Below, in pieces: positions 1 through 63,169 of a stretch of DNA of 64,000 nucleotides. Position 1 is the stretch's first letter; each line of letters opens with the position of its first letter. A model generated the notes under the pieces. The model was given only the letters and a program-made list of their open reading frames with translations. It was not told the DNA's origin and ran no database searches. This DNA is from Psammoneis japonica (taxonomy: Eukaryota): the NCBI GenBank assembly GCA_008632985.1, contig QPGO01000101.1, forward strand, positions 62,001 through 126,000, written 5' to 3'. Both the position numbers and the translations under genes were made by a program.

Positions 1-2064
1 GGGAAAAAAGTGGCACCAATGATTGATGATTGTTTTTGGTGTCCAATCTAAACTCAAACAGAAGAGACTGGAGTGGCTTTTTGCAGCCTGTGAACAGAAA
101 AACAAGTTGAGCTCTTCCAGAGTGGCGCGCCACACATTTTCCAGCTTTGAATGGAGTGGTGAATGTTCTGTTGCACCACCAAGAGAAATCTCAGTCAATG
201 TGAAACAGCTTGCACTTTCTGGCAGGTGTGGGTGGATGTGTCAACAAATTGAGTTGCCCTGGGGTTCATGATGCCTGCAAAAAAAAAAAACCATCACAGG
301 TCCCATTGTGCACTCCAACACCCCAGCCTTCTTTTGCACCAATTCAAGAACCCTTGGTGCATCAAACAGCTCTCCCAACTCATCCACCAACAAGACAAAC
401 CACAGGGGAAACCCCATCCAATTCACCAACAACCTTGATGCCTGCCCAGGATCCAACTTTGACACCAACAAATTTCTCCAACAGCCCAAACACTTGATCC
501 TGTGGCAAGAGCAACATTGAGCCCAACAAGTTTGCCAACCACATTGCAAACATTGAATCCTGTGTCACCTCCCATGCTGTCTGTGACTCAGGGACCAACA
601 CCCATCCCTTCAAACTCAACCATGCCCATGCCAAATTCAAACCCCTGCTTCATTTTAAACACCTTGTCCAACACAAAAAGAGCCTCACCTGTCCCAGCAA
701 GGCATCTCACTCTGGCACCAGCTGATGCACCAAAGAAGGCCCAAACACTGCCAGAAGTGAGTGACAATGACAAGAAAATTGAAGTGGCTTCAGAACTGGG
801 GTCCTTGGGTGCTGGCAGGAATGCCAAAACAACAATGAATGCAAATCTTCAATGTGTCAGAGTGGTGCTTGTGTGGCATGGTCTGCTTGCTTCCCAATCA
901 AGCACAAAACTGGCATGCTCTCTTTGACAAAGACAGAGCCAACAATCAACACTGTGTTTGATGCCTCTGCTTTTTTGACTCAAGCGGCCACCAAGCTTGG
1001 CACAATCAAGTTGACCAGACATGCAGCATGATGCAAAGCTGCACCATGTTCGCGGAGAAGATGGAGGTGCTCAATGTCTTTGTGGTGGATCTGTTTGAGT
1101 TGGACTTGTCATTTTGTGATTTTGGATGCCATGGAATTGATCGACTTTTGTGCTGTGACACAAAACGCACCCACGATTTAGGCTGCAAATGCTTCCCTGT
1201 TGGAACCTGTCTTCAAATCGTCCTCGTCATTCACAACTCAAGGCGGTGTGGTTGCGCAGGTCATGCCAATGAAAATGTTGCCACTGCAACAATGCATCCT
1301 GCCTCCTCTCTGGTGTTGGCACATGAGCTTTGTCATTCACTCTCTGAACCAGGCAATGAGTGCCATTGTGGGCGTGGCAATGACTCGGCCTCACGGGGAA
1401 GGCAAACAAGCCAAAAGGTTATGACAGAGTGAAATGCATCCCTGGTTGCACAAACAAGGCCTTTTTTGGTAAAGGCGATCCAAGCGGACTGCCCAACCGC
1501 TAAAGTGTGAAAGCTGTTTCTATTTAAAATGATTTGAGGGTCTTGTCACTAGCTTGTCAATTTTGTTTTGGCCAAAAGTTATCATCCAGCATGTGTCGAA
1601 TTGCACTGCTCTCCTAACACCCCGTAGAGTCTTTGGGACTACCCTTGGGTCTAAAGTCAACGACGCTCGTGTGTTGGCCCCGCAAGATTTGAGATTGCCG
1701 AGAGATAGACAAAAATCATGGCGGGCAATTCAAATCCCGCGTCTTGGAGGGAATCCTTGCCACGCACCACGGCGAGTTGAAAGCCACCGTTTGTCGCGGC
1801 AAATGAAATGATCCAAGCCAGAGCTTCTCCGTCTGACGACGCTTGGCAAAAGGAAAGATAACACTAGTTGGAGAGATTTGATAAGGTTAGGAAAAAATAC
1901 AGCCCGCGTAACTCAAACGATTTCTCAAAACTGTTGCACGACGAAAGTGTTTGGAGCAGCAGAGCACGCGAAGAAGGCGTCTTGCCGAGGGAAATGCGTT
2001 GTAGGATACAAGAAACTTGAAGAACACCTCACGAAATACTGCATGGATAGTTTCCAAACGTGGC

Positions 2065-3981: not shown

Positions 3982-6900
3982 TTTTATTCCTGTTTTGATT
4001 GTGTGAGTCTTTGCCAGAGACTTATTGGAGAAGAAGCGAGGGCTCATTGATCGATCCGCGGTGCCAACAATAAGCCACTCAACGCAACTTTTCAACGGAC
4101 GGAAAATTTTCTGCTCACGTGTTTTTGGTCCCGCGCATGCATCTGTGACAAAACCACGTGGAGGTTCTACTTCACAAGCGGAAACCCACATGATTCCTTG
4201 AACATCAACCAAAATCGATGCAGCATCGATTGGTTTCTTTGGCTTGAACTGTTTATCTTTTACGAGATTGTGATGCTCTATGGTCCGGCAATGGCATCAC
4301 GGCAACACGGCATCGCACACACTGTGCTTTTTTTGCCCTGCGCCGATCTCTAACATATTGATTTTAATCAAAGACGCTTTTGATGATAAAGCAGCAGTGT
4401 TTTGGTGTGCCGCGGCATCATGCGCGGCCTTTGCGCATTGATTTCTCACATTTCCGTTGAAAAGATGCTTCAAAACCAAAACACTGCAACTGTCACCATG
4501 GCCTGCACCCGGCTGAGCTTCCAAATGATGGCTCAAGTGGGGCAAGCCAATTTCCAGTCAACAAGCTGAAAAATTTGTTCATTTGCGGGAGCTGATTCTC
4601 CTGGGCACACACACACACACGCGTGGGATCGCACTCAACGATTTCGGTGCTCATGGTGTGCGATTCGCTTTTCGTCTTGAGGATGGTCTTAAGTCGACTT
4701 TTTTAGCATGCTCAAGGAAGCAGTGAGGTGGCACGACCTCGAAAATGGGGGAGCTGTCAAATCAGCCACGCGTGCACACACACACACACACACATGCGCT
4801 CACAATGTGGTGAATGTGCTGCTGCAGCAGCTTGGGAGAATGTGCACGTTGCCATGCTGGTTTTGTAAGGAAATTTGCTGCTGCCAGCTCTGCTCTCTGC
4901 CTCATCCCAAAGCACATCAACAATGGCTGTGATGGTCGCAGGCTGGTGGTTCCCATGCTGGAGATTGCTGGTTGGCGTGTGCAGCGGTGGCTGTGGATGG
5001 TGCGTTGTTCTCAAGAAGAGAGGTGGCAGCTGAGCCATTGAGCAGCACAGGAGGGGCTGTGCCATCAAGAACCTGTCACAGCAATTTGTTTGACAAGGCG
5101 GTGGTGTGCAGGAACCCAAGCTTGGTGTGTGACAACACTGCTGTTGCTTGGCACAGAGGAGGAAAAGATTGTTTGTGTTTTGTCAGAGTTTTTTTTTTCT
5201 GGCTCCAATGGGCTCATCCAAAATGGGTTCTGCTGCCAAGTGGCTGGGGTGTGTGAGGTGCACAAACAATGGACCATGCAGCATTCCAGGAGCATCCCCC
5301 CCATCACAGTTTGCACTGTCCTTTGCTGCAAGGGCAGCACAATGTTTGCCATTTCTGTCCCTTGTTCTTGCTGCGCCAGTTGCCTGGTGGTGGTGGTGGT
5401 GGTTGGAATTTGGCATTCTGGGAGGCACATGACCCACTTTGCCAGCACCCTGCTTTTGTTGGCATCATTGGGTTGTTGTTTGAGTTTTTTTGTTTGGCCT
5501 GGCTTCTTCACACCAAAAGCAGCAGCAAAACAAAAACTCTGGGTTGTTCTTGGGTGTGTGCCACAGCACCCATGATGGAGCTCTGCACGTGAAATGTGGC
5601 ACACACATCATGATGATGAGGAGAAAGGAGTCATTGTGTTTCGCTGCCAGGCAGCAGTGGCTCTGCCCTTTTTTCCACTCTCATTCTTTTGCCCAGCACA
5701 CACACTTTGGGTGCAAAAAGCCTCATGTGTGGTGGGGCAGCACTGCACACCATGCTCTTGTCTGTGTGCAGTGTGGCACATGCTGCACATTTTCCTCATG
5801 TGTTGTGTGTGAGAGAACAGCAGCAGAAGAACAGACAGACAAACACCAAATGTGCACAAGCCACACACCACAAGAGGTGTCTCCTCAACATCATCATCTT
5901 TCATCTTTCTCCAAGGTGTGTGTCACCAACATTTCCATGCAGAGTCTTGCCGTCTTTTGGCACAAATGTTGGTGCACAAGATGCCCTCCTTTTTCTCTTC
6001 TTCTTTTCTTTGTGTGAAAACACACACAAGATTTTCTGCTGGGTGCCAGCCGGCACGCATGAAGGAGAGTCTTTTTGTGAAGAAAAATGTGCTGCTGTGC
6101 TGTGAGATTCTTGCTGTTCCAGTGTGGTGAGTCCAGCAAAGTTGAGCTGGCAGAGTGCTTTGCAGCATGTGTGGCAGGCTCACACATTGCACCAGCCACT
6201 TTGTGTGTGTGTGTGTGTGCGTGTGTGCATGTGTGTGTGTGAGCCCCCACTTGACTGGTGCTGGTGCAACTGAAATTGGTGGTGGCACGTTCAGAACCAA
6301 GTGCCAACCAAGCCCTTGGATTTGTGGGTGCAAATGAATCTGCAGATTGCATCAAGGCACCCAAGAAGCTCCTGGAGCCCCACTTGGTGACTTCTGGTGC
6401 TGCTGATGCCACAAGGGAGACATTGGCGCACAAGATTCAACGGGGGTCAATGCACGTTTGGGCCCACGAGAAAGTTTGCCACTGCATGAAACAGTCACCC
6501 ATTTTCCCACGACAGCACCCACCCTTTTCCCCTGCACACAATGCTGGTTTGGTGGCGCTTCTTTGCCATGAGTCATTTTGCATTTTCAACCAGCCCGGCT
6601 CCTTTGCCAGACTGGCGTGGATTCTTGCTCATCTTTGCTTGAATCTTCTTCTCCTTTTTTTCTTGTCCTGTCAATTGGTTTTGGCTTTTGTTTGTCTCTC
6701 TTCCTTGTCCTTGCTGGAAAGCTCCAGCGTGGCTTGTGTTCTCACCACCTTCTGTGCAGGTTGTTTGTTGGTCATCATTTCCTTGCCCTTTTTGTTGCTC
6801 TTCTTCTTCTTCTTCTTCTTCTTGTCATTGCTGCACCCTCCTGCATTGAACCACACCCAGCTCACTTGCCCTGCATGTTTTCACCTCCTTCGTCATCTCC

Positions 6901-8669
6901 CCGCCAGTCACACTGTCTTGTTGGGTCAGCACACTTGGGTGCCGGGGTGTCTTCCTCCTCCTCATTGCCTCTGTTGTCATTTCCCTCTCAAATTTTCTTT
7001 TCTTTCATGGCCTTGTGATCCCAAAGTTTCCAGCAGCTCTCCGGTGTCAACAGCTCCAGAGCCTTGTCATTTGCCACACATGGCTCTGCAGCTTTGGATG
7101 AGGATGCAGAACAGCCAGGGTTCAAGTGGATGTCATTGGCAGGTGTCAGCCACTGTCTGGTCTGTGCATGAGCCCACTGGAAGAAGGAGGTCATTCTCTG
7201 GATCAAAATCTTTGGGGAGATTGTTGCATGTGTTGGAGCGCCATTTGTTGCAAACAACTGTTTCTCTGAGGGTTGCAGTCATCTGTGGGAACAAACTTTT
7301 GGAGCCGTTCCTGCACCAGTTGGTTGACATTGAGACTGTGATGGTCGTCAAAAAGGGAGTGGGCAAGCAAGTCCCCCAACATGTCCAGCATTTGGGAACA
7401 GGCAACTTGGCACCCACAAATGATGTGTGTGTCTGGCTTTGGCACGCACACCCTCTTGCGGAGGCATTTTAGCAACTTTTTGTGCTGAAGAGCCTTGGAC
7501 ACATCGAACTTCTTTTTCTGGAGTGAGCAGTGAACTGCAAAATCCTCCAGTGGTGTCAGAACTGTCACACAGTGTGGCCAGCAGAAGAGAAGCTTCCTCT
7601 GCCAGCGCAAAGCTGCAACCAAGCAGAAGGGATGATGCTTCCTCCTCAGCATCATCAGCGGGTTTTGCTGGCGGATTTTTGGCACCCGCTGTGTTGAAGT
7701 CCGAGTTTGCAAAAGGCAAGTGAACTGAAAATCAACATGGTGTTGTCAATGTGTCCAAGGCTCACTGCTTGTTGTCTCACTCAACTTTCTTGCTGCAGGC
7801 CTGTTCCAGCCCCAGGTGATGAGAAATCCATCACGCAAGAGGCCGATTGTCTGTGCAGCTCAGTGCAATGAACTCCTTCAATTTTGATCTTTTTGAAAAT
7901 CCAAAGGTGAGTGTGTGCCAGAAAACACATGCAAAGTGCACAATCGCCCTTTGATTTGGCAAAAACCCGATTTTGAAGGAGTTTGATGCACCAAATGCAA
8001 AAATGGGCCAGCAATTGGAGTCGAACCTGTGTGCATCACCTGGAGATGGAACAGGCCCGACTCAGCCAATTCTCATTGTCTTTCCCAGCATGAGCACATC
8101 AACAAATCCAACGTCGTCGTCACATCATCTGACCCATTTGAGCAATGGCGTTGACCAGATGATTTTTTTAAAGACTTTGACAAAGGAGCTGCAATGCATT
8201 CAGCCAAGCATTCTTGAGTGGGAGAGAGTCAGGCAGATGTGAGCAAAAATGCACAATGGTGCTGGCACGTGGCTCGAGAAAGAAGCAGCCAAACAATGTC
8301 GACAAAAATTGAAAATGTTCTGATGCTGTCATTCTGTGAAATGACAAATGACAGTGAACAGAGCTTCTCCCTGGCTTGTGTGCACTCTAGATTGATCGCA
8401 AAAACACAAATGTCAAATCTGAAAATTGAAAACTGTGGCTTGTGAATGAGCACTCATGGATTGTTTCATCCACCAATGGCATGAAAGAGGTCAAACACAG
8501 TTGTCACGTGGTCAAAGCCAAATTAGAAAGCAGAGCATGGTGACAAAATTGGTTTGATGATGCCATCATCTGATCTTGGTGTCAAGAGCGGGTCAAGTTC
8601 ACCTCGTTGCACTGCAAGTCACGTGTCTTGAATCCCGTGTGACCCGCTCAACTCAATTTTTTTGGAAGT

Positions 8670-8860
8670 TTTAGCACTCTAGACTTTGACCCCAGCCAGA
8701 GCCACAAAATGCACAAGACATGAGCATTGTTGGTCTCATGCTCTTCAAACCAATGTCTTGCGAGAATGAAGTGGGTGTGCATTGTTTGTGGCATCTGGTG
8801 GTTCAAAACAGAGCTGACTTTTCGTGGAGCACCTTTGTCACATGGGCAAGTGCGAGAGTC
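8670..8860. repeat. Dispersed ~190-bp repeat, copy 1 (copy 2 at ~37390-37580)
   Basis: tagactttgaccccagccagagccacaaaatgcacaagacatgagcattgttgg...aatgtcttgcgagaatgaagtggg aligns with tagactttcaccccggcgagagccacaaaacacgcaagatgtgagcattgtcgg...aatgtcttgcaagaatggagtggg. Ends are approximate. Confidence 0.75.
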
Positions 8861-8959
8861 AATGTTCAGCGATTGGTTGGCCCCAGCAACTGGCGTTCAC
8901 CCCCATTCCAGCAGGCCCCCAAAAGTGTGCTGAACTTTGCGTCTGTGTGCTTTCAGTCA

Positions 8960-9170
8960 ATCAAGGTGGGTTTCCTTGAGTTTCATTTTGTCGAAGGCTC
9001 CCGCAACCCAGCTGACATCCTCAGCAAGCGTTGGGGCTGCTCCCAAGTCTGGAGCCTCCTTCATCCTCCAATGTTTTGGAGCTTTGATCCCAAGGCTTTC
9101 AACCAATCTGACCTTGAATCTGTCGCAGTTGACCCCTCAAGCAAACTGGGGAGTGACAGGATTTGAACAA
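8960..9170 (+). mobile_element. Ty1/Copia remnant: RNase H C-terminus, polypurine tract and probable start of 3' LTR
   Basis: Translates to FHFVEGSRNPADILSKRWGCSQVWSLL, matching the Copia NPADILTK/SK motif with WGY changed to WGC. It is followed by ggggag (9148-9153) and then TG (tgacagg, 9154). Confidence 0.75.
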
Positions 9171-9559
9171 AATTCCAGTTTGTCACACACAATTGTGTGT
9201 GCTCTCAGTTCCACGTGTGTCATGTGACACAGTTTGCTTTCAAGCCACACTGCTCACAAGAACAATGACAGCAGCACCAATGTCATGACACCAGTCTTTT
9301 GGCTCCTGCAACAGTCTCTGCACAGAAACCCATCTGCCATTTAGACAGCAGCAAGGAGTTGTTGTTTTCTTCCACCCAGTCATCTTCATTTTCTGTCATC
9401 TGGTGACAGAAAGTTCCTCCAGTTGGTGATCTGGATGAGGAGGGCAATCCACTCAGACATGGGAGCACATGGCAGGATCATCCAGGGAAGTTTTTTTGGC
9501 AAACTCGCGCCAGTTGTGTGCCAAATTTTCTGCAAGGCAAAAGTCAGCAGCAAAGTGGT

Positions 9560-12120
9560 GCAGAACATGCTCAACACTTGCAGCATTGTTGGTTGCACAA
9601 AGGTGCAGCACATGAGCAAGAACTTCATCAGAGGCAGCTCAACACTTGGATGGGTCACAAATCATTGATGGAGCACATCAGCACATCCAGCCAGGACATG
9701 CCATTGGGGTCTTGTGGCAGAGAGTCAAGAGCCAGGCTCTTCACAACATTGCCAGGGCAAGAGCCACAGCTGGCTGATTTTGCAGAAGAAGAAGAAGAAG
9801 GTTTCACCAGCTCACTGGTTCCCAACAAGGCAGGAATGTTGGAGGTGAGGGTGCGGCGTGCCTCCCTGGACAATGAAACATCACAAGATTCTGCCACGGG
9901 AGGTGCCAGGTGTTCGAAGGAGAGAGGGTCTTGGCCTTCTTGGTGGGGATGGTGCCATCTTCATGCTTCCTTCTGATTTTGTACTTGGTTCTTGACCGGT
10001 GCTTTTGTTCACACAATCATCTTCCAAGCAGTCAACCCGGGATGTGTGCCAGGCTGCTCCTTTTGACAATGCTTCCCAAACTCTTGCTCTCCAACAAGGA
10101 ATTGATTTTTGCTTTGTGCACATCCCAGCAAGCAATGGAGTCACCATCCTTTGTCACCAGGTCCTTCATGTTGTTGAGTTTGTCTCTGAGACAGGCCTTT
10201 GCACAACATCCTCTTTGGACCTGACTTGTCACTTGACTTGCATGTGACAAGAAAGCTGTTGACAAATGTGCTCCACTCCTTCTGCTGGGCAATGACCTTT
10301 TGAAAAATCTTCAAGAACCAACATCTTGTGTGTCACTCTGCTGGCACATCAGATGCACTGCATGACCATTTTGGTGACAAAGCAGGCACCATGAAGGTTG
10401 TGTGGTGCTTGGTCTTCAATCAAAGCAAGCAGACTGTCACACTTTTAAAAATGGAAACAACAAGGCTTGCCTGCAAAAGAGTTGTTGAGGGGTCCTTGCT
10501 GGTGATGATCTGGCGCACGCACTCAACCATTGCCTTGAAGTCATTGCAGCATTGGGGGTCATGACAAGAATGCTGCCTCTCATTCCTGTCTCACCAGGTG
10601 TTTTGCAGAGAAATCTCCAGAGCTTCCTCCATCAAGTTTTGGCAACAAAAGAACAAATTCACCTGTTTCATTTTAACAGGATCTCTTGATTGCCCCCAAA
10701 CCATGAGAGTCATGATGCAGGACCACATCACGTCAGGACTTTCAAGAGACATTTCCTTGCAATGATGTCAGTGCAGAGATGGCTTGTGTGCTGCATGGAA
10801 AACATGACAAAGCTTTGGCTCTCCTGGAGATGGTGTGCTCAAACCACTGCTTCTTGCAGAGGCATGCACCACAGTTGTGTTTTTGAGGTTGGGTTTCAAA
10901 AAACAACTCCTTGCCTGAGAGCCATCTGCAAAACATTCCATGTCATCACAAAATCAACATTTTCATCAGCGAGACAAGAATGAGAAATTGGCCTCATTTT
11001 GTTTTTTGTGGGCAGTGACATTGACCACCAGTTGTCAATTGGGGGAAACCACACAGAGCGCACGTGATTCACAACAAAAGTGCACACAAAATTGCTGTTG
11101 TGCATTTGGGGAGAGGGCGTGCTGTTGTGTGAATCATGCACAAGAGTGCACATGCAAAACAAAATGCTGAAAAGAGTCAGCAGGCCACCTTGCAGACATG
11201 AGAGAAACTGTGAACAGCTCAAAGAAAGAGTGTGCTCTGTGAGTGTGCGCACCATGATGGTGAAATGGATGGGCACAGACAGTGTGGACATCAACTGAGC
11301 CAAGCATTGTCAAACAAGAGCTTGACAAATTCCAAACAAAGCAAACATTTTGCCCGCAATTCAAGAAAGCTGTGTGGAAAAAAGATGAGCACAACACTGT
11401 TTGCACAAAAACACAAAAAAAACACAAGCGCACCAGCACATTTGGTGCCAACACACTGTTGCAGCCACATTGATCATCACACTCCAATGATTGGCACAAC
11501 ATCATCAACGAGTGCACAAAATGATGTTGCAAAGGAAAAAGCAGATAAAACCCTGCAATGATGTGCTGGCACAAAAGCACCATTGGCAGCAACAACAAGA
11601 CCCCTTGCTGTGCACAAGATTCTGGTGAACCAAGAATTTTTCTTGTGGAGAGCACTTGGCAGGTGGGTGTGTGGCCATGGCTCACACACATGGCACAGCA
11701 CTTGTGAGTGTGTTGATCGGCTGCTTTGGGACAGACTGCAGAGACATGCTGTGCACGCGCGCCTCATGTCAAGTGGTCACGATGCAAGACACGTGCCCCA
11801 AATGCGTGCACACATTGATGAATGAATGACCTTTGGTGCTCCTCCACCATCCTTGTTTCACAGCCACACAACACAACAACAGCTTGAGGAGTCATTGCTG
11901 TTGCAGCAACCATGTTGACAATGGAGCAACCTGATGATGATGATCTTGTCAATTGTGATGAGGAAGAGGCGAGCATTTGTTGTTGTGTGGCTGTGCATGT
12001 GCATGGAAACAATGTGACACAACATGTCATGACAACAACAACAATGTGGCATGCTTGCACACACTCTCTGCATGCTTTTCTCTCATGCATTTTCTGCAGA
12101 ACACTGTTGCTGCCATCATG
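9560..12120. repeat. Segmental duplication, copy A (direct copy of ~16450-19110)
   Basis: Colinear similarity over ~2.5 kb. Example: catccagccaggacatgcc.ttggggtcttgtggcagaga at ~9684 and ~16540. Similarity continues through the UAP56 promoter, exon 1 and intron 1. Confidence 0.9.
11912..12120 (+). pseudogene. Truncated, TpA/CpG-eroded copy of UAP56 exon 1, intron 1 and start of exon 2
   Basis: MLTMEQPDDDDLVNCDEEE versus intact [19 protein letters not shown]. Splice donor gtgagta changed to gcgagca. Homology ends near 12120. Confidence 0.9.
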
Positions 12121-13710
12121 ACTGCATTCTTGCGCTTTTGGATCGGCAGGCTGAGCAATCATGTCACAAAAGCTGCTGCAGTCATTCACATGGAACCAGA
12201 TGTGTGCATTGCCATCTCAAGAAAAGAGGGAGTCAGGACCATGATTTGGAACAAAGCCTGCATTCATGAGCTCCGCTGCTTCTTCCAGAGGAATTTGCAC
12301 CCAGCTGCAGCACCTCATCTCCAACTCAAGGCATTCTTTGGTGAGTTGTTTTCAACACGCCTTTGTGGCAGGCTTCTTGTGACCATCTGCATGAAAGCTT
12401 TTCAGCCTGAGAGTGTGCTTGAACCCAAGAAGACACATTCAACGCATCAATGTCAAAATGGAAAGTGCCTTGGCCCAAACTGTTTCAGAAATGAACTTTT
12501 GGCATCTTCCTCATCTTCAGCCAGCAGATTTGCCAATGGGCTCAACAGTTTGCTCAAATTTGTCATCATGTTCCACCACAACATTGCTCTTTGTGCTCAG
12601 CAGCAGTGCACAGGAATCATCTTCCGGTCAAGGAGCTCATTCAGATTGTGCGCCGCGCACCAAACAAGCACACTTTTGACTTCAAGATTGCTGCTAAAAA
12701 AGTTGGGAGTGTGGGTTTGCCTTGTTTGGCATTTTGAGGGAAGCAGTCTCCCACTTGCGCCAAATGCCGCTGCCAGTGCTGTGCAGCAAGTGCAAAATGC
12801 CATCTCCCCTGTCCTCATTGCAGCACGTCCACAGCACTCACCCCAAGTCATGTTGCCCTCAATCCCCCCCCCCCCCTGAGGTTGTCAAGTGCAGCCTGAA
12901 GCACTGCCATGATGCAAAGTGCACAATGCAAAATGGACACCTTTTCACAGTTGGTCTCTTGATTCTTGTTGTCCTGGTCAGGCAATGCTGTCTCACAGCC
13001 ACATGGATGATGGCTGACAACAGCGGGCAAAATGTCAACGTGATCTTGCACAACTGTCTTTGCATCAGTGTCATCTGGGTGAACCAAGGTTGGTGCAAAA
13101 ATGCTGCACACTTGAGGTGAGTCCCAATGGTTGCACTGAGGGCTGAGGCACAATTTGTCGCCCGACAAAATCCAGCTCTTCAACTGACGTGATCCAACCA
13201 TTGTCATTTTTCTTCAGAAAGACAAAGTTTCATCTTGCCTCATTGTGTTTTGTCACCTCAACTTTCTTCAGAAAGACAAAGCTTCTTCTTTGTTCATTGT
13301 GTTTTGTCACCATTGAGCATGTTTGGATCAGTGCCGGAAAATTCGGGCAGCATTTCAGCGCAATCACAAGTGAAGCTCTTCCAAATTTTTTCTCAACGGC
13401 TCACCACTTCACAGCCACACTTCTGCAGACTCATTGCCAGTTGCTGGTGGACAAAGGTGTTGATGTGACTTTCCAATGGTGATGAGAAGAAACATTTGTT
13501 GTGGTCATTTTCTGCCCTTCTCGAGGCCACATGAGCACTCCGTTTTGCACAGATTTGCCCCGCCGCCAGCAACAGTGCTGCTCTCTTTCCCAACATTTGA
13601 AACACCACCAGCATTCTTCTTTAACTCTCCACCCATGATTTGGAGCCCCTCGTTGTTGATGTCAAATTTTGCATTGCAGTGCTCTGCCCACAGATCTGCT
13701 GGCATCCCCG
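12120..13710 (-). mobile_element. Degenerate DNA-transposase N-terminal half (probably IS630/Tc1/mariner-related, DGHE-motif type)
   Basis: Minus strand reads R*MCLLGFKHTLRLKSFHADGHKKPATKAC*KQLTKECLELEMRCCSWVQIPLEEA. Reverting C/H to Y gives an LGFKY..R.K.FY.DGHEKP.T..YR....YL..E.R...W.Q pattern that I recognise from eukaryotic DDE transposases. The catalytic part is absent and no TIR was found. Confidence 0.55.
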
Positions 13711-14227
13711 CTGATTCTAAACTCGAGAATCCAAGAACAGCCGATGCATGTGTTTTGATGCAAATGATTTTCAGACATCAGAAATGATGGGTTTTTGCAC
13801 TTTGGCCCTCAGGGAGCTTCGCAGGTGGGTTGGTCAGGTGGGAGTGGGTCGCAGCGCTGAGAGCCAGGATTGCTCAAGAAGCTGCAAGCATCATCGTCGA
13901 GCGACCAGGCACGCATGTGACAATTCTCATGCTCATTGTTTTCCCCTCCAATGAAATGAACTTCAACTTGGTGACGTGTTGCACCACTTGCGTAGAAATC
14001 TACTCCAAATTTCTATGTAAAAAAGTCAATTCCAGAGAAGAAGCTAAAAAATGCGACAGACGCCGTCTTGTCTTCCGAAAATCGCCCCGCTGTCCAACGG
14101 CCTACCGCCTGCCGTACCGCTTCATCCCTAGAGAGAGTCTCGAGTGCACCGTTTTCATGCAACACCGTGAACACCTTCCATCTTGAATCTTCCTGTAGAC
14201 TAAAACACAGGTCCCTGTATGCCGACT

Positions 14228-16222: not shown

Positions 16223-16286
16223 AACAACAACAACAACAACAACAGCAACAGCAACAACAACAATGACAACAACAACAACAACAACA
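16223..16286. repeat. (AAC)n microsatellite, imperfect
   Basis: aacaacaacaac... run with a few agc/atg interruptions. Confidence 0.9.
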
Positions 16287-16449
16287 TCTCATCACAGTGC
16301 TGTTCGCTGTGAACTCTCTCACACTCGCTCACACACTCTCCACATGCTGCTGTCTCTGTGTGCAACTCTCGACATTTTGCACAGGATGCTGCAGTCGCCA
16401 CCGCCGTCACTTCTCCCAACAACGCTGCCACCCCCCAAGGGTTGCTCTT

Positions 16450-46842: not shown

Positions 46843-48601
46843 TGTTTGTATGCCACTTCTTCTTGTTCAGAGCCGATTGCTTTATCGTCTCTACTCGAGT
46901 GTTGTTTTTGAGATATTGTGTCTCTCTTCACGACTTAAGACGGGTCTCTTCCGCAATAGCAACCACAGAAAGAACAGGGTTCTCATGATGGGGCGACACG
47001 AGGCTTCTCATCACCAACACCAACATGAATGACCATCGCGTTTTTGATGCTTGCATTTCTAGGCTTGCGCGAACACGTTATTTGCGCGTTATTATTGACA
47101 AGGTCTGTCAATCTTCCGACTCAACCTGTCGACACGGGCATGTTGTTCGGGATGATGCCAACAACTCTCTCCATCCTTTCTCGTCTCCATGCTTTCTCTT
47201 TTGAGAGCAATGGCATTGTAGGCAGAGAGCTGCTCGTAAAACCAATCTCTAAACACAGGCATCTCGTTTGTGTGTGCCTGTCATAAGAAAGAATGAGTCG
47301 CCTTTTTCAGTTTCCAGATTCGACGAAAGAACAGAGCCTGCAACAATCCTTCACCTGTTTTTGTTGTCTTTTTTCTGTTGTCGCATGTCCATGTTCCTTC
47401 ACGACCCAAAGAGGCAAAGGTTTTTTTTATGCAGTGACGCATTGCCCATGCGGCATGCATCTCCATGAAGCGGAAAGCCTCCATCAAAAGTTGCGCAGGT
47501 TGCTCTCCGAAAATGCTCGTTTCCAAACAATTCAAAGTCTGATTCGCACTGCTTGTCCACTAGGAGTCGAACAGCAATGGGGTCAAAAACCAGCTGTTGA
47601 CATTGTGGCACATGTTTCCCACCGACGATTGGCCTCGACAACGTCATGCGTCTGCTGTTGCTGCGCGCATTGAGAGCTGCGCAGGTTGGCAAAACAACTG
47701 CTTCGTCATTCAAAAATTGCAATGTACATGCCGCTCTGCCTTGATGTTGTTTGACACCTGTCCCAATCGTCATGACTCTCAACTGCGTATTTTGTGTGCC
47801 CGCCGCTCAAAAAATAAATCGTTGCCCTTTTTGTTGAGAATGTTGGTGTCTGCTGTCTGCACGACGCGTTTCTCTCTCGTCATTCTCCTCCTAGAGTCCA
47901 CGCTCATTCCATTGAAAACTAGTTGCACACATTTCAAGGAACACGCATGCACACACATGTCTGCAACAGCATTCATTGCATGTTGAATGTGACCCATGAA
48001 AGCTTCGCCATGGCCGCGACACTGCCGGCATGTACGAAACCAGGCCTGCGGGGAGCATTGACCACTTGTCTTTCTTTTTGTGGGTGTGGGTGTGTGCCGT
48101 TGCATGCTGCATTGCCTGTGCGTGTGCAGGGCCCTGCCGCCGGGGCCGGCACTGTGGCGGCTGAGTGGCGTGGCCACCGCACCGGTGATGCGGATGACCG
48201 TTGTGTTTGATGTCTCATGCCATTTTTGGGGCTCTGCAGCGAGGTGCACGGATGCTCTTTTTTTTCCAATTTATGCCATGATGGCGCATCGCACAAACCA
48301 ACTCATTGTTCGATGTGTTTTCCCAAATGTGACTGTTTTGTGTAGAATTCACGATCAATTGTCTTTGTTCACAAATGAGTGCATTTTTCAACATGCCACG
48401 CCGGCAATCCCAATTTTTGAGAACTTTCAAGCTCTCCTGAAAAACCGTGCCACGCACCCGTCGTAGGGAATTTATCGATTTTTTAGGATGTCCCCACGAC
48501 CTCTCATGTCCTCAATGATCATTCTGCGAATCCAAAGAATTCATCTGTGCTGAACAACCCATCCCGTTCCAAAATCCGAGGGACACACTTTCAAATTCAG
48601 A

Positions 48602-48674
48602 CGGACTGCCCGACTGCCCGACCCCCCAACCCCCCGACTGCCCGACCCCCCAACCCCCCGACTGCCGGACCGAC
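48602..48674. repeat. C-rich 8-bp-unit tandem repeat (ccgactgc/ccgacccc/ccaacccc) with 24-bp higher-order period
   Basis: ccgactgcccgaccccccaacccc is repeated twice, with partial flanking units. Confidence 0.85.
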
Positions 48675-50272
48675 ATGAAAAAGTCTGCAATCACCAACCA
48701 CTGAGTGGTCAATGAAAATGCCGCACTCTCAACTGTTCTGCAGAAGATTTCCAGTCTGTCTGTCCATCCGTGTCTCAATGTCAACTTCTCGTGGGAAATC
48801 AATCATTGAGATGTTGCCGGCATTTGGTCAAAGGGTGTTGCTCTTTGCCATGCAAATGTCCATGATCATGCAAGCTTGACAGCCCACAACCCCCACATGC
48901 ACAGGGACACAGAGCGATTTGCCCCACTTGTTTCACCCCAACAACAAAGCTCTGCCCACATGGCCCGCCGCCCACAGCGCGTTTGTCTGGAGTGGCCTGC
49001 TTGAGCAAAACAACCCTTTGGAGAAATGCCTGTTGAGAGCAAACAAATGACAGCTCAAGTGTTTGTCAACAAGGGTGGCCATGTGATCCTCCCACAAACA
49101 TGTGTGGCGCCACTTTGTTTGGCAAGCGAATCTTTCTGCTGGCGACGTGCCCCACCCACGTCTTTCAACTGGGCAACTTTGTTGTCACTTTGTTGGCATG
49201 GAAAGGTTGGCTGTTGGGAGACAAGGGGAGACAGAGATGGAAACAAGTGGGGCAAGCACCAAGCAACAGCAACAAACTGAGACAAAGCCAAAACACGATG
49301 CACGGTGCTCAGGACAGCAGTGCAAGCATTCAAGAAGCACTGCACCCTCCTGGGCACTGCAGCTCCAATTTCACACTGGTGACATGGGGGGGTTGTTTGA
49401 GTGACAAAAAGTTTCAATGCACCATGCAACAGAAAGCTGGTCGCAGCTCTTTGATGCATTGTCTTGGTGTTGCCTCATTTGCCCACACGTCTCTCTGTCT
49501 GTTTTGTCCCCATTTGTCCTCTGCATCTTTTTGTATCTCCAGGTGCCTCCATTTGGTTTTCTCCTCAACAAATTGACAGCTTGGCAATACAATCAATGTC
49601 CGCTTTGATGCTGAGTCACCAAACAACCAGCTGGCACTGCAAAAGTGCACGCAGGGACATTTGCAGAGAATCATTTGTCAAATGCAAAAAAATTGGGTGT
49701 CCACTCATCAAATGTTTGTTTGTCATCATTTGTCTTTTGCAAATGAAAAAATTCTCACTCACTGAAACATTGCAAAATGCTGCATGTCCCAGGAGACACT
49801 GGGCCAGAACCAACTGTTTGCCAACCCAACTTTTGTCTGTCTGTCCATGCGAGCTGTTGCCACCGGCAAGTTCTTGGCCACAATCACTGGAGCTCAAGGC
49901 TCGACAACAGTTGTGTGCTGTGAATGTTGCAAGGCCATGCCAAGCTCCTTTTGGCACAGGGTTGGCCATTGAGAAGCTGGTGTCCCCTCCTGTGCACCAG
50001 AGAGTGTGGATTTCCTTGCTGCGAGTTGTCCAGTTGCGCAGTGGATGTCCAGGTTGAAGGTGACGTGCTGGACGACACGGCTTCAAAACACAGTTCAACT
50101 TTCATCCTTCACAGTTTAAGTCTGTTGCATGAGATTCAAGATTAATGACAATCAACACGCGACACTGAACTGCTGTCTGTCATCTACCGAACCGGGGAAA
50201 AATATGGTTCAAAATACAAAGTTATTGCGTAACATTTATCTCTTATGTATGTAGCCCCTAGCACTCGAAAAC

Positions 50273-51718: not shown

Positions 51719-52299
51719 TGTATCTTTTTCGTGCCACTTTCTTCAGAGCAGATTGCTTATCGTCGCTTCTCGAGATTGTTTCTCTTGCTTCTATTGTGCA
51801 CATAAGTTCCACCACGACTCCATCGAAGAAATGAATGAGACAAGGCGCAACAAGAGATGAGAGGAGTACGCACAGTTCTCATTCGCGTCCACAGAGCGAC
51901 ACCATGACTGACTATTGCGTTTTTGCGATTTATCTGCAATCCGCTTGATGTGCTCGCGTCGCGCAGGCTATCGCGTACAGTGCCGTTGGTTGTTGCCGTG
52001 CGTCAGGTGTTCATTTGATTGGACGCATCGCTGAACGGCCGTGTCTCATTCTCGTCATGAACAAGGATTTAAGACAAAACATTCGACGCTTCAATGATTG
52101 ACGACATGCATCATGTTTTTCAATCTCAAGCAAAGAGAAGGACATCCACAGCACTCTTGGGTTTCATTTGGATGTGTTCATCACCCCCAAATGAACCAGG
52201 AGGGCCTTGGTGGCACCCATGAAAGTGTCACAAAATGTCTTGCCAGGGTCACACTCATCACGCAACGGCACTTGTGGACTGCAAATGGCCAGGTGCAAC

Positions 52300-54200
52300 A
52301 GGCTGAGAGCATGCAATGTTGTAAAACTCACCGCCATCAGCAGCAACACATTCTGTCTTGTGCTTGTTGTCTTCATGCTTTGTTGCCTGGTTCTTCTTGA
52401 TGAGCCGGCAAAGCTGAAGATGTGACTCAGCGGCATTTTCATTCACTGTGATTGGGAGTGAGTTTGCACAAACTGGCCACTCTCCTCTCCAGATCTTTGT
52501 CATTTTTGAAGCTGACACCACATCATCTTGACGGAAAAGAAGTGGCACGTCGTGTTCACAGATCAAGGTGAGCGATTGATGCTGGGGGTGTGGGCTGGCT
52601 TTTTGCCAGAGTCACAGGGTGGAATCCTGGCAGCACTTTGAACAGAGAGCTGAGGCCTTTCTTTGTTTCATGCCAATGTCAAAGAGCATCTGGGGATCTG
52701 AGGGCATTGCAATGTGCTCAATGAGTGCACCAGCAAAGTTGTTGCAGGCGCCAAAAACCCCAAGTCTGGACAAGAGACCCAGAGACTCAACCCACCCTTG
52801 CTTGACATGATGGCATTTGATCAACAGCTGAGTGCTGTGGATGACTCTTAAGGTGCACAGCATGCAGCAGTGCACCCAACCAATGCATGGCAGGAAAACA
52901 CAAAGAGCACAACAATGCCTGAGCCATGATGCTGAAGGTGTTGTTGAGTGTCTCCACTCACACATTTCACCAAGCAACATCTGAGCCTGCAGATTCAACA
53001 AACACAGCATGCTTGAAACACACCTTGCAAAATTCAAAAGGAGCCAACTGTTGGCTGTTCCTGCCATGGCATGCAACAAATGCACCCACCAAGAAGTGTG
53101 CCAGGGGCTTCTTGCTGGGAGCAAGAGGAGCCCATGTGCGTGGCTGGTTTCAGCATCCACAACAAGAAGGCAAGAGCCACATCCATCCTGAGATTGTGCA
53201 CTGCACTCATTTTTCTTTGGCAGGTGTTTGGATCAATGATTTTTGCACTTGGGGGGTTTGGCTCTGCACACAGTTTGGTCCAAGGCACGCATGAACACCC
53301 AAAATCCATGCAAAACTGCACTGCAGGAGCTGGGTGCACATCCTCTTGGACAGGTCACACAGGCACTTGATGGTGTGTGGCATGCAGCATTGGAGATGTC
53401 ACAAGTGTGGCATTGACATGTGGTGCAGTCTCATGGACCAGGGAGACACCGGTCACATGTCAACAGCGGTGTGGCATTTGATGTGTGCATTCGAGGGTTT
53501 GCAAGGCAGTCACACCAGACTTTGTTGGTGGCAACCTGCCTGAAAGAACTCAGCTGTAAATCCACAGAATGCACACTGGCAGTCACCTGTGGAGGAAAAT
53601 CCTTGGTGAGGTCTGTGGCTGCTCTGGGAAGTGAGGTGCACCAAACATTCAGGGATGACAGGGCATGCATTGTGAAGGCACAAAGGGCACCATTGAGTTC
53701 CACAGTTTTGTCAGCCAGGGGGAGAACGTCAGGGGACAGGTGTGAGGCACAAATTGCAGGCCTTTGGTGTGCACTTTTGGAAGTGCAGAAACAGATGTCA
53801 AGGTTGCTCTTGCATGGGCAAGTGTTCCACAGCTCACATCCACATGCAATGTGATCATGTGTCACATCCATGCAACATGATGTGTGGTGTTGGATGTGTT
53901 GCTTGGTGGATGGATGAACAATGGAACATGTCATCTGGACAGGCAAGAGTCTCTCCCAGACAAGAGCAGCAGAACATTGGGATGTTGCAAACTTTGTTGT
54001 TGTTGATGTCATGTGTGACAAAAAAACCAATGCGCCAGATGCCTTGACACTCTGGTCTAGAGCAGCAGAGCCCTGATGCCGCCCTCGCAGATTTGAGTCA
54101 ATGATGCCATTGATGATCAGCGAGGCAGTGATGGTGGCTGGGCACCCCTGACCAGCAACTCAAGCTGGCAAGTCTGGTGTGAGATTCTAAATGCAAGAAC
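52300..54200 (-). mobile_element. Heavily decayed Ty1/Copia pol remnant (protease/pre-integrase/integrase region)
   Basis: Minus-strand fragments in Copia order: QFCMDFG (~53320), SQDGCGSCLLVVDAET (~53190), W..LAPSKKP, ALLHAVHLK...HSA and LGVFG (~52760). These become typical integrase motifs (DGY.SYLLVVD, ALLHAVYL.N) when C/H are reverted to Y. Ends are approximate. Confidence 0.65.
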
Positions 54201-56320
54201 AGAGAGACATTGGCAAAAAGGCAGCATCATGTTTGAGTGCCACTGCTGCAGTCACAGGATCAGCTGGAATGGGCATCACCAGAAAGTGGCGCCCCACCAA
54301 GATGACTGAAAAGGAATGATTCACACAAGGCATTTGTTGCATGCTTGTTGACAGCAGCCACAGAAGGCATGCCACAACTGCAACGGACAATCGCACTTGG
54401 GTTTTTAAAACAGTCCACAAAAGGAGCCTTGAAGGCAAGAAGAGCAGTTCATTGGAGAAAACATTCATGGCACCTGGAAACAATGCCAGGTCTTGCATGG
54501 AAAACCCCATGGCAGAAGCAAATGGATGACAATCAAATGGCACCACAGGATGACTTGTGTTCACCACAAAAAGAGCAAAGTGCTTGATTGCATGGCAGAG
54601 AAGAGAAGCGGGGTTGAAGACTGATTGGCAAGAATGAAAGCAGTCCGGAAAAGTGACAAACAGATGTTCAGTGGTGACACGTGGAAACAACACCAGATCT
54701 TGCACAGAAAAGCCAATGGGAGTGGCAAATGGATGACAATCAAATGACTCCGAAGGACAACTGACACTTTTGCTGAAAAGGGCCACAACAGAAGTGGTGC
54801 TTGCACCACAAAGAGTGAAGGACTTGATTGCATGGCAAGGAAAAGAGGCAGCATTGAAGACCAATTGGCAAGGACAAAAGTGGTCTGGGGAAGTGATGTG
54901 CAGCACTGGAACCTGTGTAGAAAATTTTCTGAGACAACAGAAAATTGCAAGAAATGACAACCAGCATGCAAACCAACCGGCTGCAACACTCGTCATTTTC
55001 CACTGATGAACTTTGCTCATCATGCTGCAATGAGGATGCACCATTGGCAAAGGTGGACAGAATGGGCTTGTTGGGGCCAAATCAACACCATCTGCGAAGA
55101 GCAACATCAGTGTGAGAAGGTGCATGGAAACCCATGCAGAAGCTGAGGGCATGCAGCTGATGTCAAAAAGTGTGACTTGCCCAGAAGAGATGGGGAGTCA
55201 TCATCTGGTGAAGAACATGGAGTCCAAGGAGCTCAGGCTGATTCTCGCAGGTCACACAGGAGGACATCTGGAGTGTGCCCAATTGGGAAGTTTGTCACAA
55301 CCTGGGGTGTTGGCAATGAAGCTGCAGCCTGTCAAGGGAGGGATTGGATCATCAGCAAAAGGCAGAGGCATGTCAGTGCCCCAACCATCTGTGCCCTGCT
55401 GTTGTTTGGAAGCCACTTGCTGCCAGTTGGTGAGGACCAAAGCTCTGGCTTGTGGAGTTTGTTGGTTTGATTGACAGACCCAATGCAGTCTCCTTCAACA
55501 TGAAATCAACCACCTCACCCACAACATCAGACAAAAAATGTCAAGCAGCAGGGCACACATGCATGATCCCATGTTGCCCTCAGCATCAGCAATGAAAGCA
55601 TCAGCCCAGCCAGCAAGTGCAGCAAGTTTGTCATCCAGGGCATCCAAGAGCTGTTTGCAGTGCAACACTCCAACATCTCAAGCACCATGACTTGCACAAT
55701 TGTGTCAAAAATGAAGATGTCATGTCACTTTCTCAAGATGCCAGCCAGACCCAGATCATGTCAGCGAGCATGTTTTTTAAGTTGAGGGCACCAGCCTTCT
55801 TCCATCTGGTCTGGACAGTGTCCATCATTGCCCCCCACACAGCCCACCCATTGGACACTTTTCAACAAGATCAAAAAGAACATTGAGACCTGGTCAGTGG
55901 GCCTGCTCCTTGGCGTCACAAGGCCATGCTCCATTTCTTTTGTGAAGGGTTGAATGTTGAATGGCCAGTGTTCCCTCCTGTGCACCAGATGGCATGGATT
56001 TCTTCACTTCAAGTTGTCCAGTTGCATTGACCAGATTCTGGTTTAGTTGCATTTTGTGAACAATTGACCAAAAACTGCATTGTTGCTCCTTTAGCAGAGC
56101 ATCTCTGCTTGCACTTTGTCTGGGGGGAGAGTGGAGTGGACGTCCAGGAGATGTGCTGGAAGACGCAAAATAAAATTCAGCTTTCATCGTGCACAGTTTT
56201 TAGTCTGTTGCATGAGGTTCAAGATGAGTGACAATCAATGCGCAACATTCAACTTTGCCAACTGTTGTGCACCGAACCGGGGCAAAGATGTGTCAAAATG
56301 CACAATTGAACTAACAATTC

Positions 56321-59125: not shown

Positions 59126-59166
59126 CTCTGAGAGAGCCGTCGCACACACACTGCAACACCCACAAC

Positions 59167-60345: not shown

Positions 60346-63169
60346 TCAATTTCGTAAGTGGTCAGTCTTCTAAACATAGAAAAGTGTGGTTTGCGCCAGC
60401 TTGTTTGGAGATAGCTAGCATCATAGCTACCAAGGACGAATCGTCTTTGGGCAAGTACGAATGACAAAGATTAGTGAAAAGATCCTGTTGAAAGCCACTT
60501 CGTATTATTTTTGCTCCGACATGCGCATTGTCCGCGACCATAGAGTGCGAGAGGCTAAATTATTGTGAGCAACAGTCGCCCGCGACAAAGCGACGAACAA
60601 AGCGCGAACGAACAAATCTCGACGGTGCAATGGGGTCTCTACTAGAACAGAGGGCGTGACATGGTGCATCAAATAAGTTCAAATTAAACGCACTTTTCAA
60701 GGCACGAAATGACACCTGCCATCACAACGGACCATCCACTCCACCTTGACTTGCTTGGTCCCTGCCAGAGTGCCCTTGGCCATCAAGGAGCACTCCTTTG
60801 CTGCTCACCAACAAGCTCCAGCATGCAAAAGAAAGACATTGCAGCCAAATCATTTCACACTTCTTGGCCTAAGTGACAGATGCTTGCCACAGTCATTTTG
60901 GTGCACACTGCATGTTGCACACTTCTGGCACTCACAACCCACCGGTGCACGCCCCGCTCACAAATCTCACATGTTTGCTGGTGGCTGAGTCTCCAGGTTT
61001 CCAGATGCACATGACTCTGCATCACTGTGCCTGTTGTGCCCTGCTTCCTGTTGGTGTTGTTGCTTGCTGCCCCTCAACTCCCAGCTGGGATTGCACAATC
61101 ACACAAATCCAGCTCACAAAAATTTTGCACAATGTGCCGCCATTGCGTGCTCCACTTGGTGCCACAAGCTGTGGCACTGTGGCCTGTCCATCACCCTGCT
61201 GCACATCTTGCTGCTTTCAAAAATCCAAGCCTTGACTTGCACATCCACCCAATTCTCTTTCTGGTTCTTTTGTGTGCAACAAGTCCTTTGCAAGCCCGTG
61301 GCAAGCAAGCTGACAAAGTGAGAGTTGGCGGCTCACTCCAGGCAAGTCCCCATTTTTTGGCACAAGCAATCCATGGTGGTGAAACAATCTTTTGTGAAAA
61401 TGCTGCTGGCACTGATGATCTGTTTGCCATGTTTTTGACTTGGAACAACAAATGTCGACAATGTCACAGCACGCGTCAATGTCTTGGCATGCTTTGAAAA
61501 ATGTTCTCAATCAAAGCAAAAGGCAGAGCGTTGCCACATTGCATGACACTGTTCCTTGTTGGTCCCCACAGCCCCCCAAACAAGCCTGTTTTGTGGGAGC
61601 CTTCAATGTTGTTGTGTGTGAGTTTGCATCGCATCTCTTTCATTGGATTGTTGGGTTTCTTGAAGGTGTTGTTGTTGAGAAGTTGTTGTTTGTGTCACCA
61701 TGGTGTGATGGATGCAATTTGTTGTTTGTCACCAATGGCTGCAAACACCTTGTTTCTGTTGCACTCATCATGCACTGACACCTGCTTGCATTGAAAGCAA
61801 CAATCGCATTGCGTGTGGCAAGTGCTGTGCAGCAGGCCAGCACTGCACAGCAGTTCTGTGCCAGTGACACACGTTTGAGCAATTGCTCTGACCTGCACAA
61901 GGTTGAGTGATTGCTCGAGCATTGAGATTCATGGCGGGCTTGTGGCAAACAGGATGTGGGCAGCAGGAGCCAGAACAAAGGAAGTCAAAGCAGAAGCTCT
62001 CCGAGTTGCAAGTTGGTTTTTGAGGTTTTCAAAAAGTTGGAGGGAAGAGACAGCACCACTGTTGCTGAGCTGGCTGAGTTCAAACCTGGTGACTTTGGTG
62101 CAAAAGATGCATTTTTGACCTCATCCATGATTTCTCACATGCAGAGTCAGCGCTGGCTGTGCAGCAGCACACAGGCTGAATGCCCATTGCAAAATGGTGC
62201 AAACAAGTGTTTTGTCTCAACCTCCAAACAGCAGCTGTGGTGCACAAAATCTTCAAGATTTTGGGCAAAGCCAACCATTGTGCATTGCAACATGTGCTTT
62301 TCAGTGAAAAACATTTGAGCCAACACAGATTGTGCCTGGCACAGATTTGAGGGATTGTTTTGATTTTGTGTGGGGGACAAATCCAGCTCAAGACATTCCT
62401 TTGGTCAAGATGGACTCACAAGCCCCAGCTTGTTGTCGACCCACTGCTGAAATTGACAAAACCTCCACAGCAGCTGAAGCACATTCTTCTCCCCTAAGCA
62501 GTGCTGCAGCGGCTGTGAGTTTGGGTGCCACAGCTGCTCCAGCCCATGACCAGCTTGGCAACAGCCGGTGTGCCCTCAGCACTTCAGACACAAAAACCTT
62601 GTTGGTTGACAGAAAAGACTCTGGGTGAGCAGGCGAACAAAACAGCCACCAACAAAAAGCCAACAACCTTGAGATGCACACCACTGGTCAGATGCACAGC
62701 ACAAATCAATAAAGTTGTCATTTTTTGCATCACCGGGTGTGCTCAAATGGGCCGCCCGCCAGATCTTGGCTCCATTGAGCAGCCAGTGCCCGTGGCAACA
62801 ACCTCCTGCACATCTTAGAAGATTGTGACTTGCTTCTCATGAAGAGAGAGAGACAGAGAGAGAGACAGAGCATGGTGAGTTGATTTGGAAAACTCACCCA
62901 ATCGAGCAAACTCGCATGTCCTCCCCCACCACTCGGATCTTTTTAACACAACAACCTCAACCACGTAAACAACAACAGCCAGCCGCTGATGAAGCCACTG
63001 TCTCACTCCTGACTTCGGCCAGCTTTGTTGTGCCTGCCATTTGTCAAAACAGTTGGACAAACATCCGAACTGGCAGCCCTGCCTTGGCTGCTCTTCATTC
63101 TTTGTTTGTCACATTTGACAGAAAATCGGCTTTGCTGATTTTGTCATTTGTTCAAGAGAGAGTTGAAAG

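Follow-up and report, generated by a model that had tools for sequence, protein, structure and literature searches.

In Neurospora and other ascomycetes, repeat-induced point mutation (RIP) turns CpA into TpA, enriching the DNA for TpA, and strikes both copies of a duplicate. A different dinucleotide is hit in the chlorarachniophyte Bigelowiella natans, in which integrated giant-virus and virophage DNA undergoes hypermutation restricted to TpA: the available text of the preprint reports A/T to G/C transitions that are confined to TpA and yield TpG or CpA, clusters of DNA depleted of TpA and enriched in CpA and TpG, an enrichment of DDE-endonuclease and reverse-transcriptase domains in the depleted set, and 231 de novo mutations in mutation-accumulation lines; adenine deamination by an ADAT2-like protein is proposed as the cause (Mettrop et al., bioRxiv 10.64898/2026.01.13.699255). 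Its main text gives no rule beyond TpA, and the words context, flanking and trinucleotide are absent from it. In the literature searched, this 2026 preprint is the only account of TpA hypermutation, and there is no report from a diatom of TpA loss or of RIP-like mutation; a paper on Phaeodactylum DNMTs mentions, in its available part, a RID-related DNMT4, and there the term “TpA” does not occur (PMC9998398). The subject here is a 64,000-nucleotide stretch of a diatom genome, that of Psammoneis japonica (assembly GCA_008632985.1, contig QPGO01000101.1, positions 62,001 to 126,000; hereafter the window), in which long tracts have lost nearly all of their TA dinucleotides: which TAs survive, and on which strand the others have changed, depends on the bases around them, above all on the base that follows the A.

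How does this locus compare with the systems just described? With B. natans, as far as the preprint's available text goes, it has in common the change of TpA to TpG or CpA, the clustering of TpA-poor DNA and the presence of a DDE-type domain in the depleted part; unlike B. natans, the diatom belongs to a different supergroup, and the tracts of the window are near saturation and lose CpG as well. With RIP it shares transitions that are targeted to a dinucleotide and ruin redundant or mobile DNA, in sharply bounded tracts beside intact genes. Fungal RIP itself can nevertheless be rejected: TpA falls to 0.00-0.1 of expectation while CpA and TpG rise, which is the opposite of RIP, and duplicates are treated differently, because a PAS-domain gene at 42339-44670 is intact while its copy at 30698-33044 is mutated, and three PAN-domain paralogs are all unmutated.

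Surviving and converted TA sites

The window is eukaryotic nuclear DNA with a GC content of 0.41-0.52, in which TA stands at 0.24, CG at 0.59 and TG/CA at 1.55 of expectation. Its 500-bp bins are two-sided, holding either about 10-50 or 0-3 TA. A three-state hidden Markov model of TA/(TA + TG + CA) divides it into nine depleted tracts (32,146 bp, 66 TA remaining), four intermediate tracts (11,102 bp, 119 TA remaining) and eight normal segments (20,676 bp, 824 TA). Across the nine depleted tracts the observed/expected ratio is 0.00-0.1 for TA and 1.7-2.2 for TG/CA, and relative to normal DNA the gain of TG + CA (about 75 per kb) matches the loss of TA + CG (about 73, or 72.6, per kb). Recognizable host genes lie in the normal segments: the UAP56/SUB2 helicase, the PAS-domain open reading frame (ORF), an Exo_endo_phos ORF and the three PAN-domain paralogs. 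The mutated tracts contain the ORFs of a DDE_3 transposase and of a DUF7869 transposon, along with gene duplicates of two kinds, namely a copy of the PAS gene and copies of the UAP56 5' region (Table 1).

Which TAs are left? A sequence-only reading of the window had noticed that the remaining sites are mostly YTAR (Y, pyrimidine; R, purine) and had proposed a mutator that prefers TAY, on either strand. The 15 tetramers that it listed are all exactly where it had placed them (15/15), and the excess is large: YTAR accounts for 50 of the 66 survivors in depleted tracts (21 CTAA/TTAG, 19 TTAA and 10 CTAG) against 133 of 824 TAs in normal DNA (odds ratio 16.2, p = 6.3e-24), and it is seen in eight of the nine tracts, the exception (48489-50113) having two TA. 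The intermediate tracts show a milder form of the same bias (36 of 119; odds ratio 2.25, Fisher p = 4.7e-4), and a cruder segmentation of 500-bp bins, with no more than 3 versus at least 10 TA, retains it (45 of 73 against 144 of 835; odds ratio 7.7, p = 1.7e-15). The result is independent of gene DNA as a reference, since the contrast is the same within the depleted tracts themselves, where TA/(TA + TG + CA) at sites with the same flanks is 0.031 for YTAR, 0.0032 for the mixed classes (YTAY and RTAR) and 0.0021 for RTAY. Survival relative to normal DNA follows the order that had been predicted, with RTAY lost fastest, the mixed classes in the middle and YTAR slowest: 0.008, 0.015 and 0.20 in depleted tracts, and 0.12, 0.27 and 0.50 in intermediate ones, where, among non-YTAR sites, RTAY is rarer than mixed (p = 0.007).

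These survivors can be described by half-sites: the rate at which a TA is lost is taken as the sum of two rates, one per strand, each governed by the base that follows the A on the strand in question. An additive Poisson model of this kind fits the ten tetramer classes of the depleted and intermediate compartments (observed/fitted 21/16.0 for CTAA, 10/9.5 for CTAG, 19/20.5 for TTAA and 1/1.1 for GTAC), with relative half-site rates of 1 for A, 1.7 for G, 4.1 for C and 6.2 for T. Equal rates in all contexts, the outcome that would have spoken against any preference, are rejected (likelihood ratio 154.5 on 3 degrees of freedom). The process is about four times faster with T or C after the A; by Poisson bootstrap the Y/R ratio is 3.8 (95% interval 2.8-5.2) and the T/C ratio 1.5 (1.2-1.9), and these ratios are probably lower bounds, given unequal exposure from tract to tract and the possibility that part of the residual TAs arose later.

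Survivors alone cannot tell slow loss from biased re-creation, and converted sites were therefore used. A self-BLAST in which all pyrimidine-purine steps had first been replaced by a single symbol recovers alignments of mutated with intact paralogs, among them the PAS pair, the UAP56 5' copies, 47096-47789 against 58xxx, and smaller ones. The PAS copies are 82.7% identical over 2.4 kb: 80 TAs of the intact gene appear in the mutated copy as TG (33), CA (21), TA (11) or something else (15), the commonest substitution is A to G (73) and the second T to C (58), and CG has become TG 9 times and CA 11 times. Over all pairs, 196 TA sites of normal copies correspond to 132 TG or CA, 15 retained TA and 49 other outcomes. 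The fates, in the order TG, CA, kept and other, are 33, 28, 2 and 21 for RTAY; 25, 9, 7 and 10 for YTAY; 6, 16, 3 and 6 for RTAR; and 9, 6, 3 and 12 for YTAR. The symmetric classes are thus balanced between the strands (TG:CA 33:28 for RTAY and 9:6 for YTAR), and at mixed sites the TAY strand has taken 41 of the changes and the opposite strand 15 (binomial p = 7e-4; 51 against 21 with a looser site filter), which bears out the proposed TAY preference. The preference was said not to be absolute, and indeed a depleted copy reads CCTGAT at 11930 where the UAP56 gene has CCTAAC at 18920.

The strand choice can be expressed as a rate ratio of 2.4 for Y versus R at +1 (conditional logit on 156 conversions; beta 0.89, standard error 0.26, likelihood gain 6.4 units), and it has left its trace in composition. 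From normal to depleted DNA, YTGY + RCAR rises from 42.3 to 70.7 per kb, and YCAY + RTGR from 36.3 to 45.4; in intermediate tracts, in which mixed-context CG is scarcely lost (28.9 to 25.6 per kb), the gains are +15.0 versus +3.4 per kb. The ratio of the two sums, taken segment by segment, is higher in depleted DNA (median 1.65) than in normal DNA (about 1.2; Mann-Whitney p = 0.0012). The preference is strand-specific, and because the choice at mixed sites is strand-specific it belongs to the forward mutation. A dimer that reads the palindromic 4-bp RTAY is ruled out, since mixed sites change preferentially on one strand, and the pattern speaks for a reader that recognizes T-A-Y on a single strand.

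The TAY rule is incomplete: positions +/-2 matter too. Survivors are enriched for A at +2 (0.59 versus 0.29, p = 9e-12) and at +3 (0.45 versus 0.29). Y[TA]R sites of the depleted tracts fare according to their outer flanks (T at -2, A at +2): relative to normal DNA, sites that lack both survive at 0.063 (raw TA share 7/950), sites that have one at 0.39 (26/660) and sites that have both at 0.66 (17/147). The hexamer TYTARA is almost immune; bare YTAR is not.

Candidate agents and competing explanations

What kind of agent would leave such a pattern? We consider it probable that the depleted tracts are explained by a TpA-specific hypermutation that acts on one strand at a time and at a rate set by the base 3' of the A. 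Such a process would turn TA into TG or CA in selected DNA, which here would comprise transposon ORFs, redundant gene copies and tracts that defy annotation, and would spare neighboring genes. Each strand would be acted on separately, its rate depending on the base 3' of the A (equally, 5' of the paired T) in the order T (6.2) > C (4.1) >> G (1.7) > A (1); RTAY, with two good half-sites, would disappear fastest, YTAY and RTAR, with one, would go at an intermediate rate and change on that strand, and YTAR would be slowest, leaving near saturation mostly YTAR and above all TYTARA. What the sequence shows is that TA becomes TG or CA, a single base pair changing in each event, that survival depends on context and that mixed sites change by a strand-specific choice; from this we infer an enzyme that would read T-A-Y and treat the two strands singly, the likeliest candidate being a polynucleotide adenine deaminase (A to inosine, read as G). 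We know of no enzyme to which hypermutation that erases TpA has been assigned, and a Pfam search found no deaminase domain among the ORFs of the window.

Two families of adenine deaminases offer points of comparison. In TadA/ADAT the target A follows U or T (U33-A34 in tRNA), and the natural site of bacterial TadA is U-A-C-G; ADAR edits double-stranded RNA, prefers U 5' of the edited A and G as the 3' neighbor, and acts on repeat-derived duplexes. The window resembles TadA/ADAT in that a T stands directly 5' of the target A and only TpA is lost, but TAT is struck 1.5 times (1.2-1.9) faster than TAC. As for the UACG site, of which the sequence-only reading had been reminded, the base preferred after the A is a pyrimidine, but T stands above C, and a G at +2 is not favored (survival of TACG 0.27 versus 0 for TACC and 0.1 for TACT). 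The likeness to TadA is an analogy only. According to the available part of a review, the engineered editor TadA-8e A48E edits A in a “YAC” context (PMC13109818), a further point of likeness; in the window the -1 base is strictly T and not Y. Amphioxus ADAT2, which is active on DNA and cited by the B. natans preprint, favors 5'-GAA-3' when it deaminates A and 5'-TCG-3' when it deaminates C, in the part of its description that is available (PMC10354150), which does not match the TAY rule. ADAR, also cited in the discussion of that preprint (10.64898/2026.01.13.699255), shares the T (U) 5' of the changed A, but in the window G is a poor 3' neighbor (1.7 versus 4-6 for C and T), and the changes are heritable ones in DNA, not in RNA.

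Several points weigh against reading the tracts as the work of a strand-by-strand attack on the A of TAY, and they are best considered together with the explanations that compete with it. From sequence, an attacked A would be indistinguishable from an attacked paired T, TAY being RTA on the opposite strand, and a mutator's preference from a repair enzyme's. The same context rule would follow if the target were the T of 5'-R-T-A-3', changed to C by, for example, thymine modification and mispairing or error-prone repair: exchanging the strands leaves all results unchanged (what is YTAY to YTGY on one strand can equally be read as a T to C after R and before A on the other), and no sequence argument speaks against it; however, A-to-I deamination is the simpler known route from A:T to G:C and is the one proposed for B. 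natans in the preprint's available text (10.64898/2026.01.13.699255), and an attack on T appears unlikely to us. The outer positions are awkward in a different way: in survival, the contributions of the two strands do not add up, and conversion shows no strand-specific influence of these positions (beta -0.04, standard error 0.26, for A at +2; -0.32, standard error 0.24, for Y at +2). Part of the context rule may therefore be a property of the duplex, such as an A-tract junction, and not of a single-strand reader; alternatively, the reader may contact both sides of the TA. A duplex-level property would suit a mutator that strikes all TAs alike, with the context imposed by repair, e.g., by a glycosylase or endonuclease that works better in YTAR or A-tract contexts, and the joint, non-additive protection of both strands (0.063/0.39/0.66) is what such a scheme has in its favor. 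Yet the +1 effect is strand-specific (41:15), which calls for a reader of the 3' neighbor on the damaged strand; a repair enzyme could be one, but we think an origin of the whole rule in repair improbable. The paralogs, for their part, confirm the predicted order of rates only in one half: RTAY is retained least (2/63), but YTAR (3/18) is not retained more often than the mixed classes (10/66; YTAY 7/41, RTAR 3/25), and in the PAS pair YTAR was converted in 7 of 8 cases and RTAR went to CA four times and to TG five. Numbers are small and several copies are saturated; the alignments alone would not reveal YTAR as the slowest class. Finally, the idea that mutation is directed at repeats is partly supported, most depleted tracts having no recognizable transposon domain.

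Could the survivors be latecomers? In principle, the depleted-tract survivors could be new TAs, except for the two that a third copy can polarize (16138 and 8680), both of which are ancestral; moreover, normal copies are not true ancestors, since they carry TG or CA opposite 11 TAs of the intermediate copies. Both facts leave room for YTAR sites created by context-biased back-mutation (C to T at YCAR and G to A at YTGR, e.g., through CAG/CTG methylation). But the pool from which these would arise, YCAR + YTGR, makes up 22% of CA/TG sites (1635/7309) as against the 76% of YTAR among TAs, and the strand-choice test, to which back-mutation is invisible because only converted sites enter it, gives the same preference; we regard back-mutation as very improbable. 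CHG methylation as the source of the residual TAs was considered separately and rejected: it predicts NTAG/CTAN, whereas TTAA is enriched like CTAG (19 and 10 sites; TA fractions 0.037 and 0.026), and CTAC/GTAG (3) and ATAG/CTAT (1) are not enriched. We give practically no credence to chance or composition, i.e., to tract ancestors that were already rich in YTAR or to gene DNA that is poor in TAR: normal DNA is mostly coding and in-frame TAA and TAG are avoided there, but stop-codon avoidance can cut TAR by no more than one sixth, which is far from 16-fold, the within-tract normalizer gives a 10- to 15-fold difference without any gene DNA, and the intact PAS gene has 10 YTAR among its 80 TA.

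What is new here is the quantified neighbor-base rule and the protection by positions +/-2, for a kind of hypermutation known from one preprint. Its parts, namely the order T > C >> G > A after the A, the strand-by-strand action and the resistant TYTARA hexamer, turn a compositional oddity into a testable enzymatic signature: they indicate oligonucleotides for biochemists, let annotators recognize and date mutated tracts, and let the published mutation-accumulation data be asked whether one agent serves both lineages. If it does, defense against mobile DNA by DNA editing would be a widespread trait of the SAR supergroup. We advance only tentatively the notion that diatoms and chlorarachniophytes share a genome defense of this sort, with a putative catalytic subunit that would read, on each strand singly, 5'-T-A-Y followed by a 3' side poor in purines, and change A into a base that pairs like G in selected DNA. 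Were this true, the order TAT > TAC >> TAG > TAA and the near-immunity of TYTARA would be a biochemical fingerprint by which to pick the enzyme among candidate deaminases, and would predict the sequences by which mobile elements could escape.

Mutated tracts, genes and copies

Table 1. Mutated tracts, reference genes and resistant hexamers of the window. Tract limits are those of the hidden Markov model; TA counts are remaining sites, with the YTAR share of depleted tracts.
Feature	Position	Strand	Details
TA-depleted tract	11..1413		3 TA, 3/3 YTAR
TA-depleted tract, 9.6 kb	4392..13990		17 TA, 14/17 YTAR; contains a depleted copy of the UAP56 5' region (~11886-12124) and a 2.5-kb segment paralogous to 16480-19112
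TA-depleted tract	15867..18760		5 TA, 5/5 YTAR; second copy of a UAP56 5' fragment at 15986-16417
UAP56/SUB2 DEAD-box helicase gene, TA-normal	18764..20686	+	Pfam Helicase_C 3.2e-28; intact reference for depleted copies
TA-depleted tract	20691..24306		7 TA, 7/7 YTAR
Intermediate tract	26360..33202		69 TA, 320 CG (CpG nearly normal)
DUF7869 transposon ORF	27234-28262		Pfam; inside intermediate tract 26360..33202
Mutated duplicate of the PAS-domain gene	30698-33044		Inside intermediate tract 26360..33202
TA-depleted tract	33206..37155		11 TA, 7/11 YTAR
DDE_3 transposase ORF	36133-37233		Pfam; assigned to depleted tract 33206..37155
Intermediate tract	37156..38354		12 TA
TA-depleted, CpG-retaining tract	38788..40207		2 TA, 1/2 YTAR; 69 CG in 1.4 kb
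Intermediate tract	40210..41879		21 TA; multi-copy by summed contig depth
Intact PAS-domain gene	42339..44670	+	813-aa ORF 42206-44647; reference for copy 30698-33044
Intermediate tract	47096..48485		17 TA; paralogous to normal DNA at 57520-58811
TA-depleted tract	48489..50113		2 TA, 0/2 YTAR
TA-depleted tract	51978..56308		13 TA, 9/13 YTAR
TA-depleted tract	60691..63998		6 TA, 4/6 YTAR
TCTAGA (TYTARA, most resistant hexamer)	8386-8391, 8678-8683, 36372-36377, 54056-54061		

CpG declines as well, from 53 per kb in normal DNA to 18 per kb in depleted tracts. Some tracts that lost TA have kept their CpG (38788-40207, with 2 TA and 69 CG, and 26360-33202, 6.8 kb with 69 TA and 320 CG), so that the erasure of TA and the decay of CpG are separable, and the loss of TA is earlier or faster than that of CpG. 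The latter is presumably a slower, separate process, 5-methylcytosine deamination; neighboring A/T promotes it slightly more than neighboring G/C, CpG remaining at 0.28 and 0.42 of normal, respectively.

The loss of TAA and TAG has a further consequence: in the depleted tracts (e.g., 5042-7745) both strands open up, in more than one frame, to stop-to-stop ORFs of 150-400 aa, and gene callers will over-predict there. Among 45 further long ORFs of the mutated tracts none scores above the Pfam cut-off (0/45), a sub-threshold match to Peptidase_M64 (20.2 bits against a cut-off of 26) being disregarded; a 743-aa ORF at 2065-4296 has no usable match in the protein atlas, and Rfam gives no match over the whole window.

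Compared with named proteins of diatoms (Fistulifera, Discostella, Phaeodactylum, Amphora, Corethron, Aulacoseira and Mayamaea), the UAP56 fragment shows 86-89% identity; the figure is 83% for Triparma and 81-82% for oomycetes, which marks the window as diatom DNA and sets it apart from B. natans. A 2.5-kb segmental duplication (9625-12124 versus 16480-19112) spans the promoter and first exon of this gene: one copy runs into the live gene, and the other copy, together with a third fragment at 15986-16417, is fully TA-depleted. Between the depleted segments 9628-11247 and 16483-18220 there are just 17 TG/CA-discordant sites with conserved flanks (5/5/5/2 by class). The three PAN-domain paralogs lie 4-5 kb apart, all on the minus strand (45232-46866, 50273-51742 and 56504-57904); they are 74-86% identical in DNA and all TA-normal, with depleted spacers between them, and they tell that duplication as such is not the trigger of mutation. 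A homologue search with a PAN-domain ORF gave one unnamed match, of no help for taxonomy.

Contigs of one sample, sequenced in three runs, cover the single-copy parts of the window at a depth of about 60 and mostly with 0-1 differences per kb, which argues that the TA pattern is not an assembly artefact. The mutated parts 26301-28300 and 35639-42308 collect many more contigs, as repeats would. Among 40 of the 319 contig-window differences, 33 are transitions at pyrimidine-purine steps (23 of the CG and 10 of the TA type). In 28393-31514, which is single-copy and partly mutated, one covering contig differs at eight places, all of them such transitions (four TA<->TG/CA and four CG<->TG/CA); these could be allelic differences that point to recent activity, or else noise in the consensus. 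Within the mutated DNA lies a 0.4-kb island, 38361-38777, that is normal in both TA and CpG. Its summed contig depth, which is not a copy number, is about 143,000 as against about 60 for single-copy DNA; it has no Rfam match, is the sole part of the window matched by sequencing run X3, and seems to be a short repeat of very high abundance without TA depletion.

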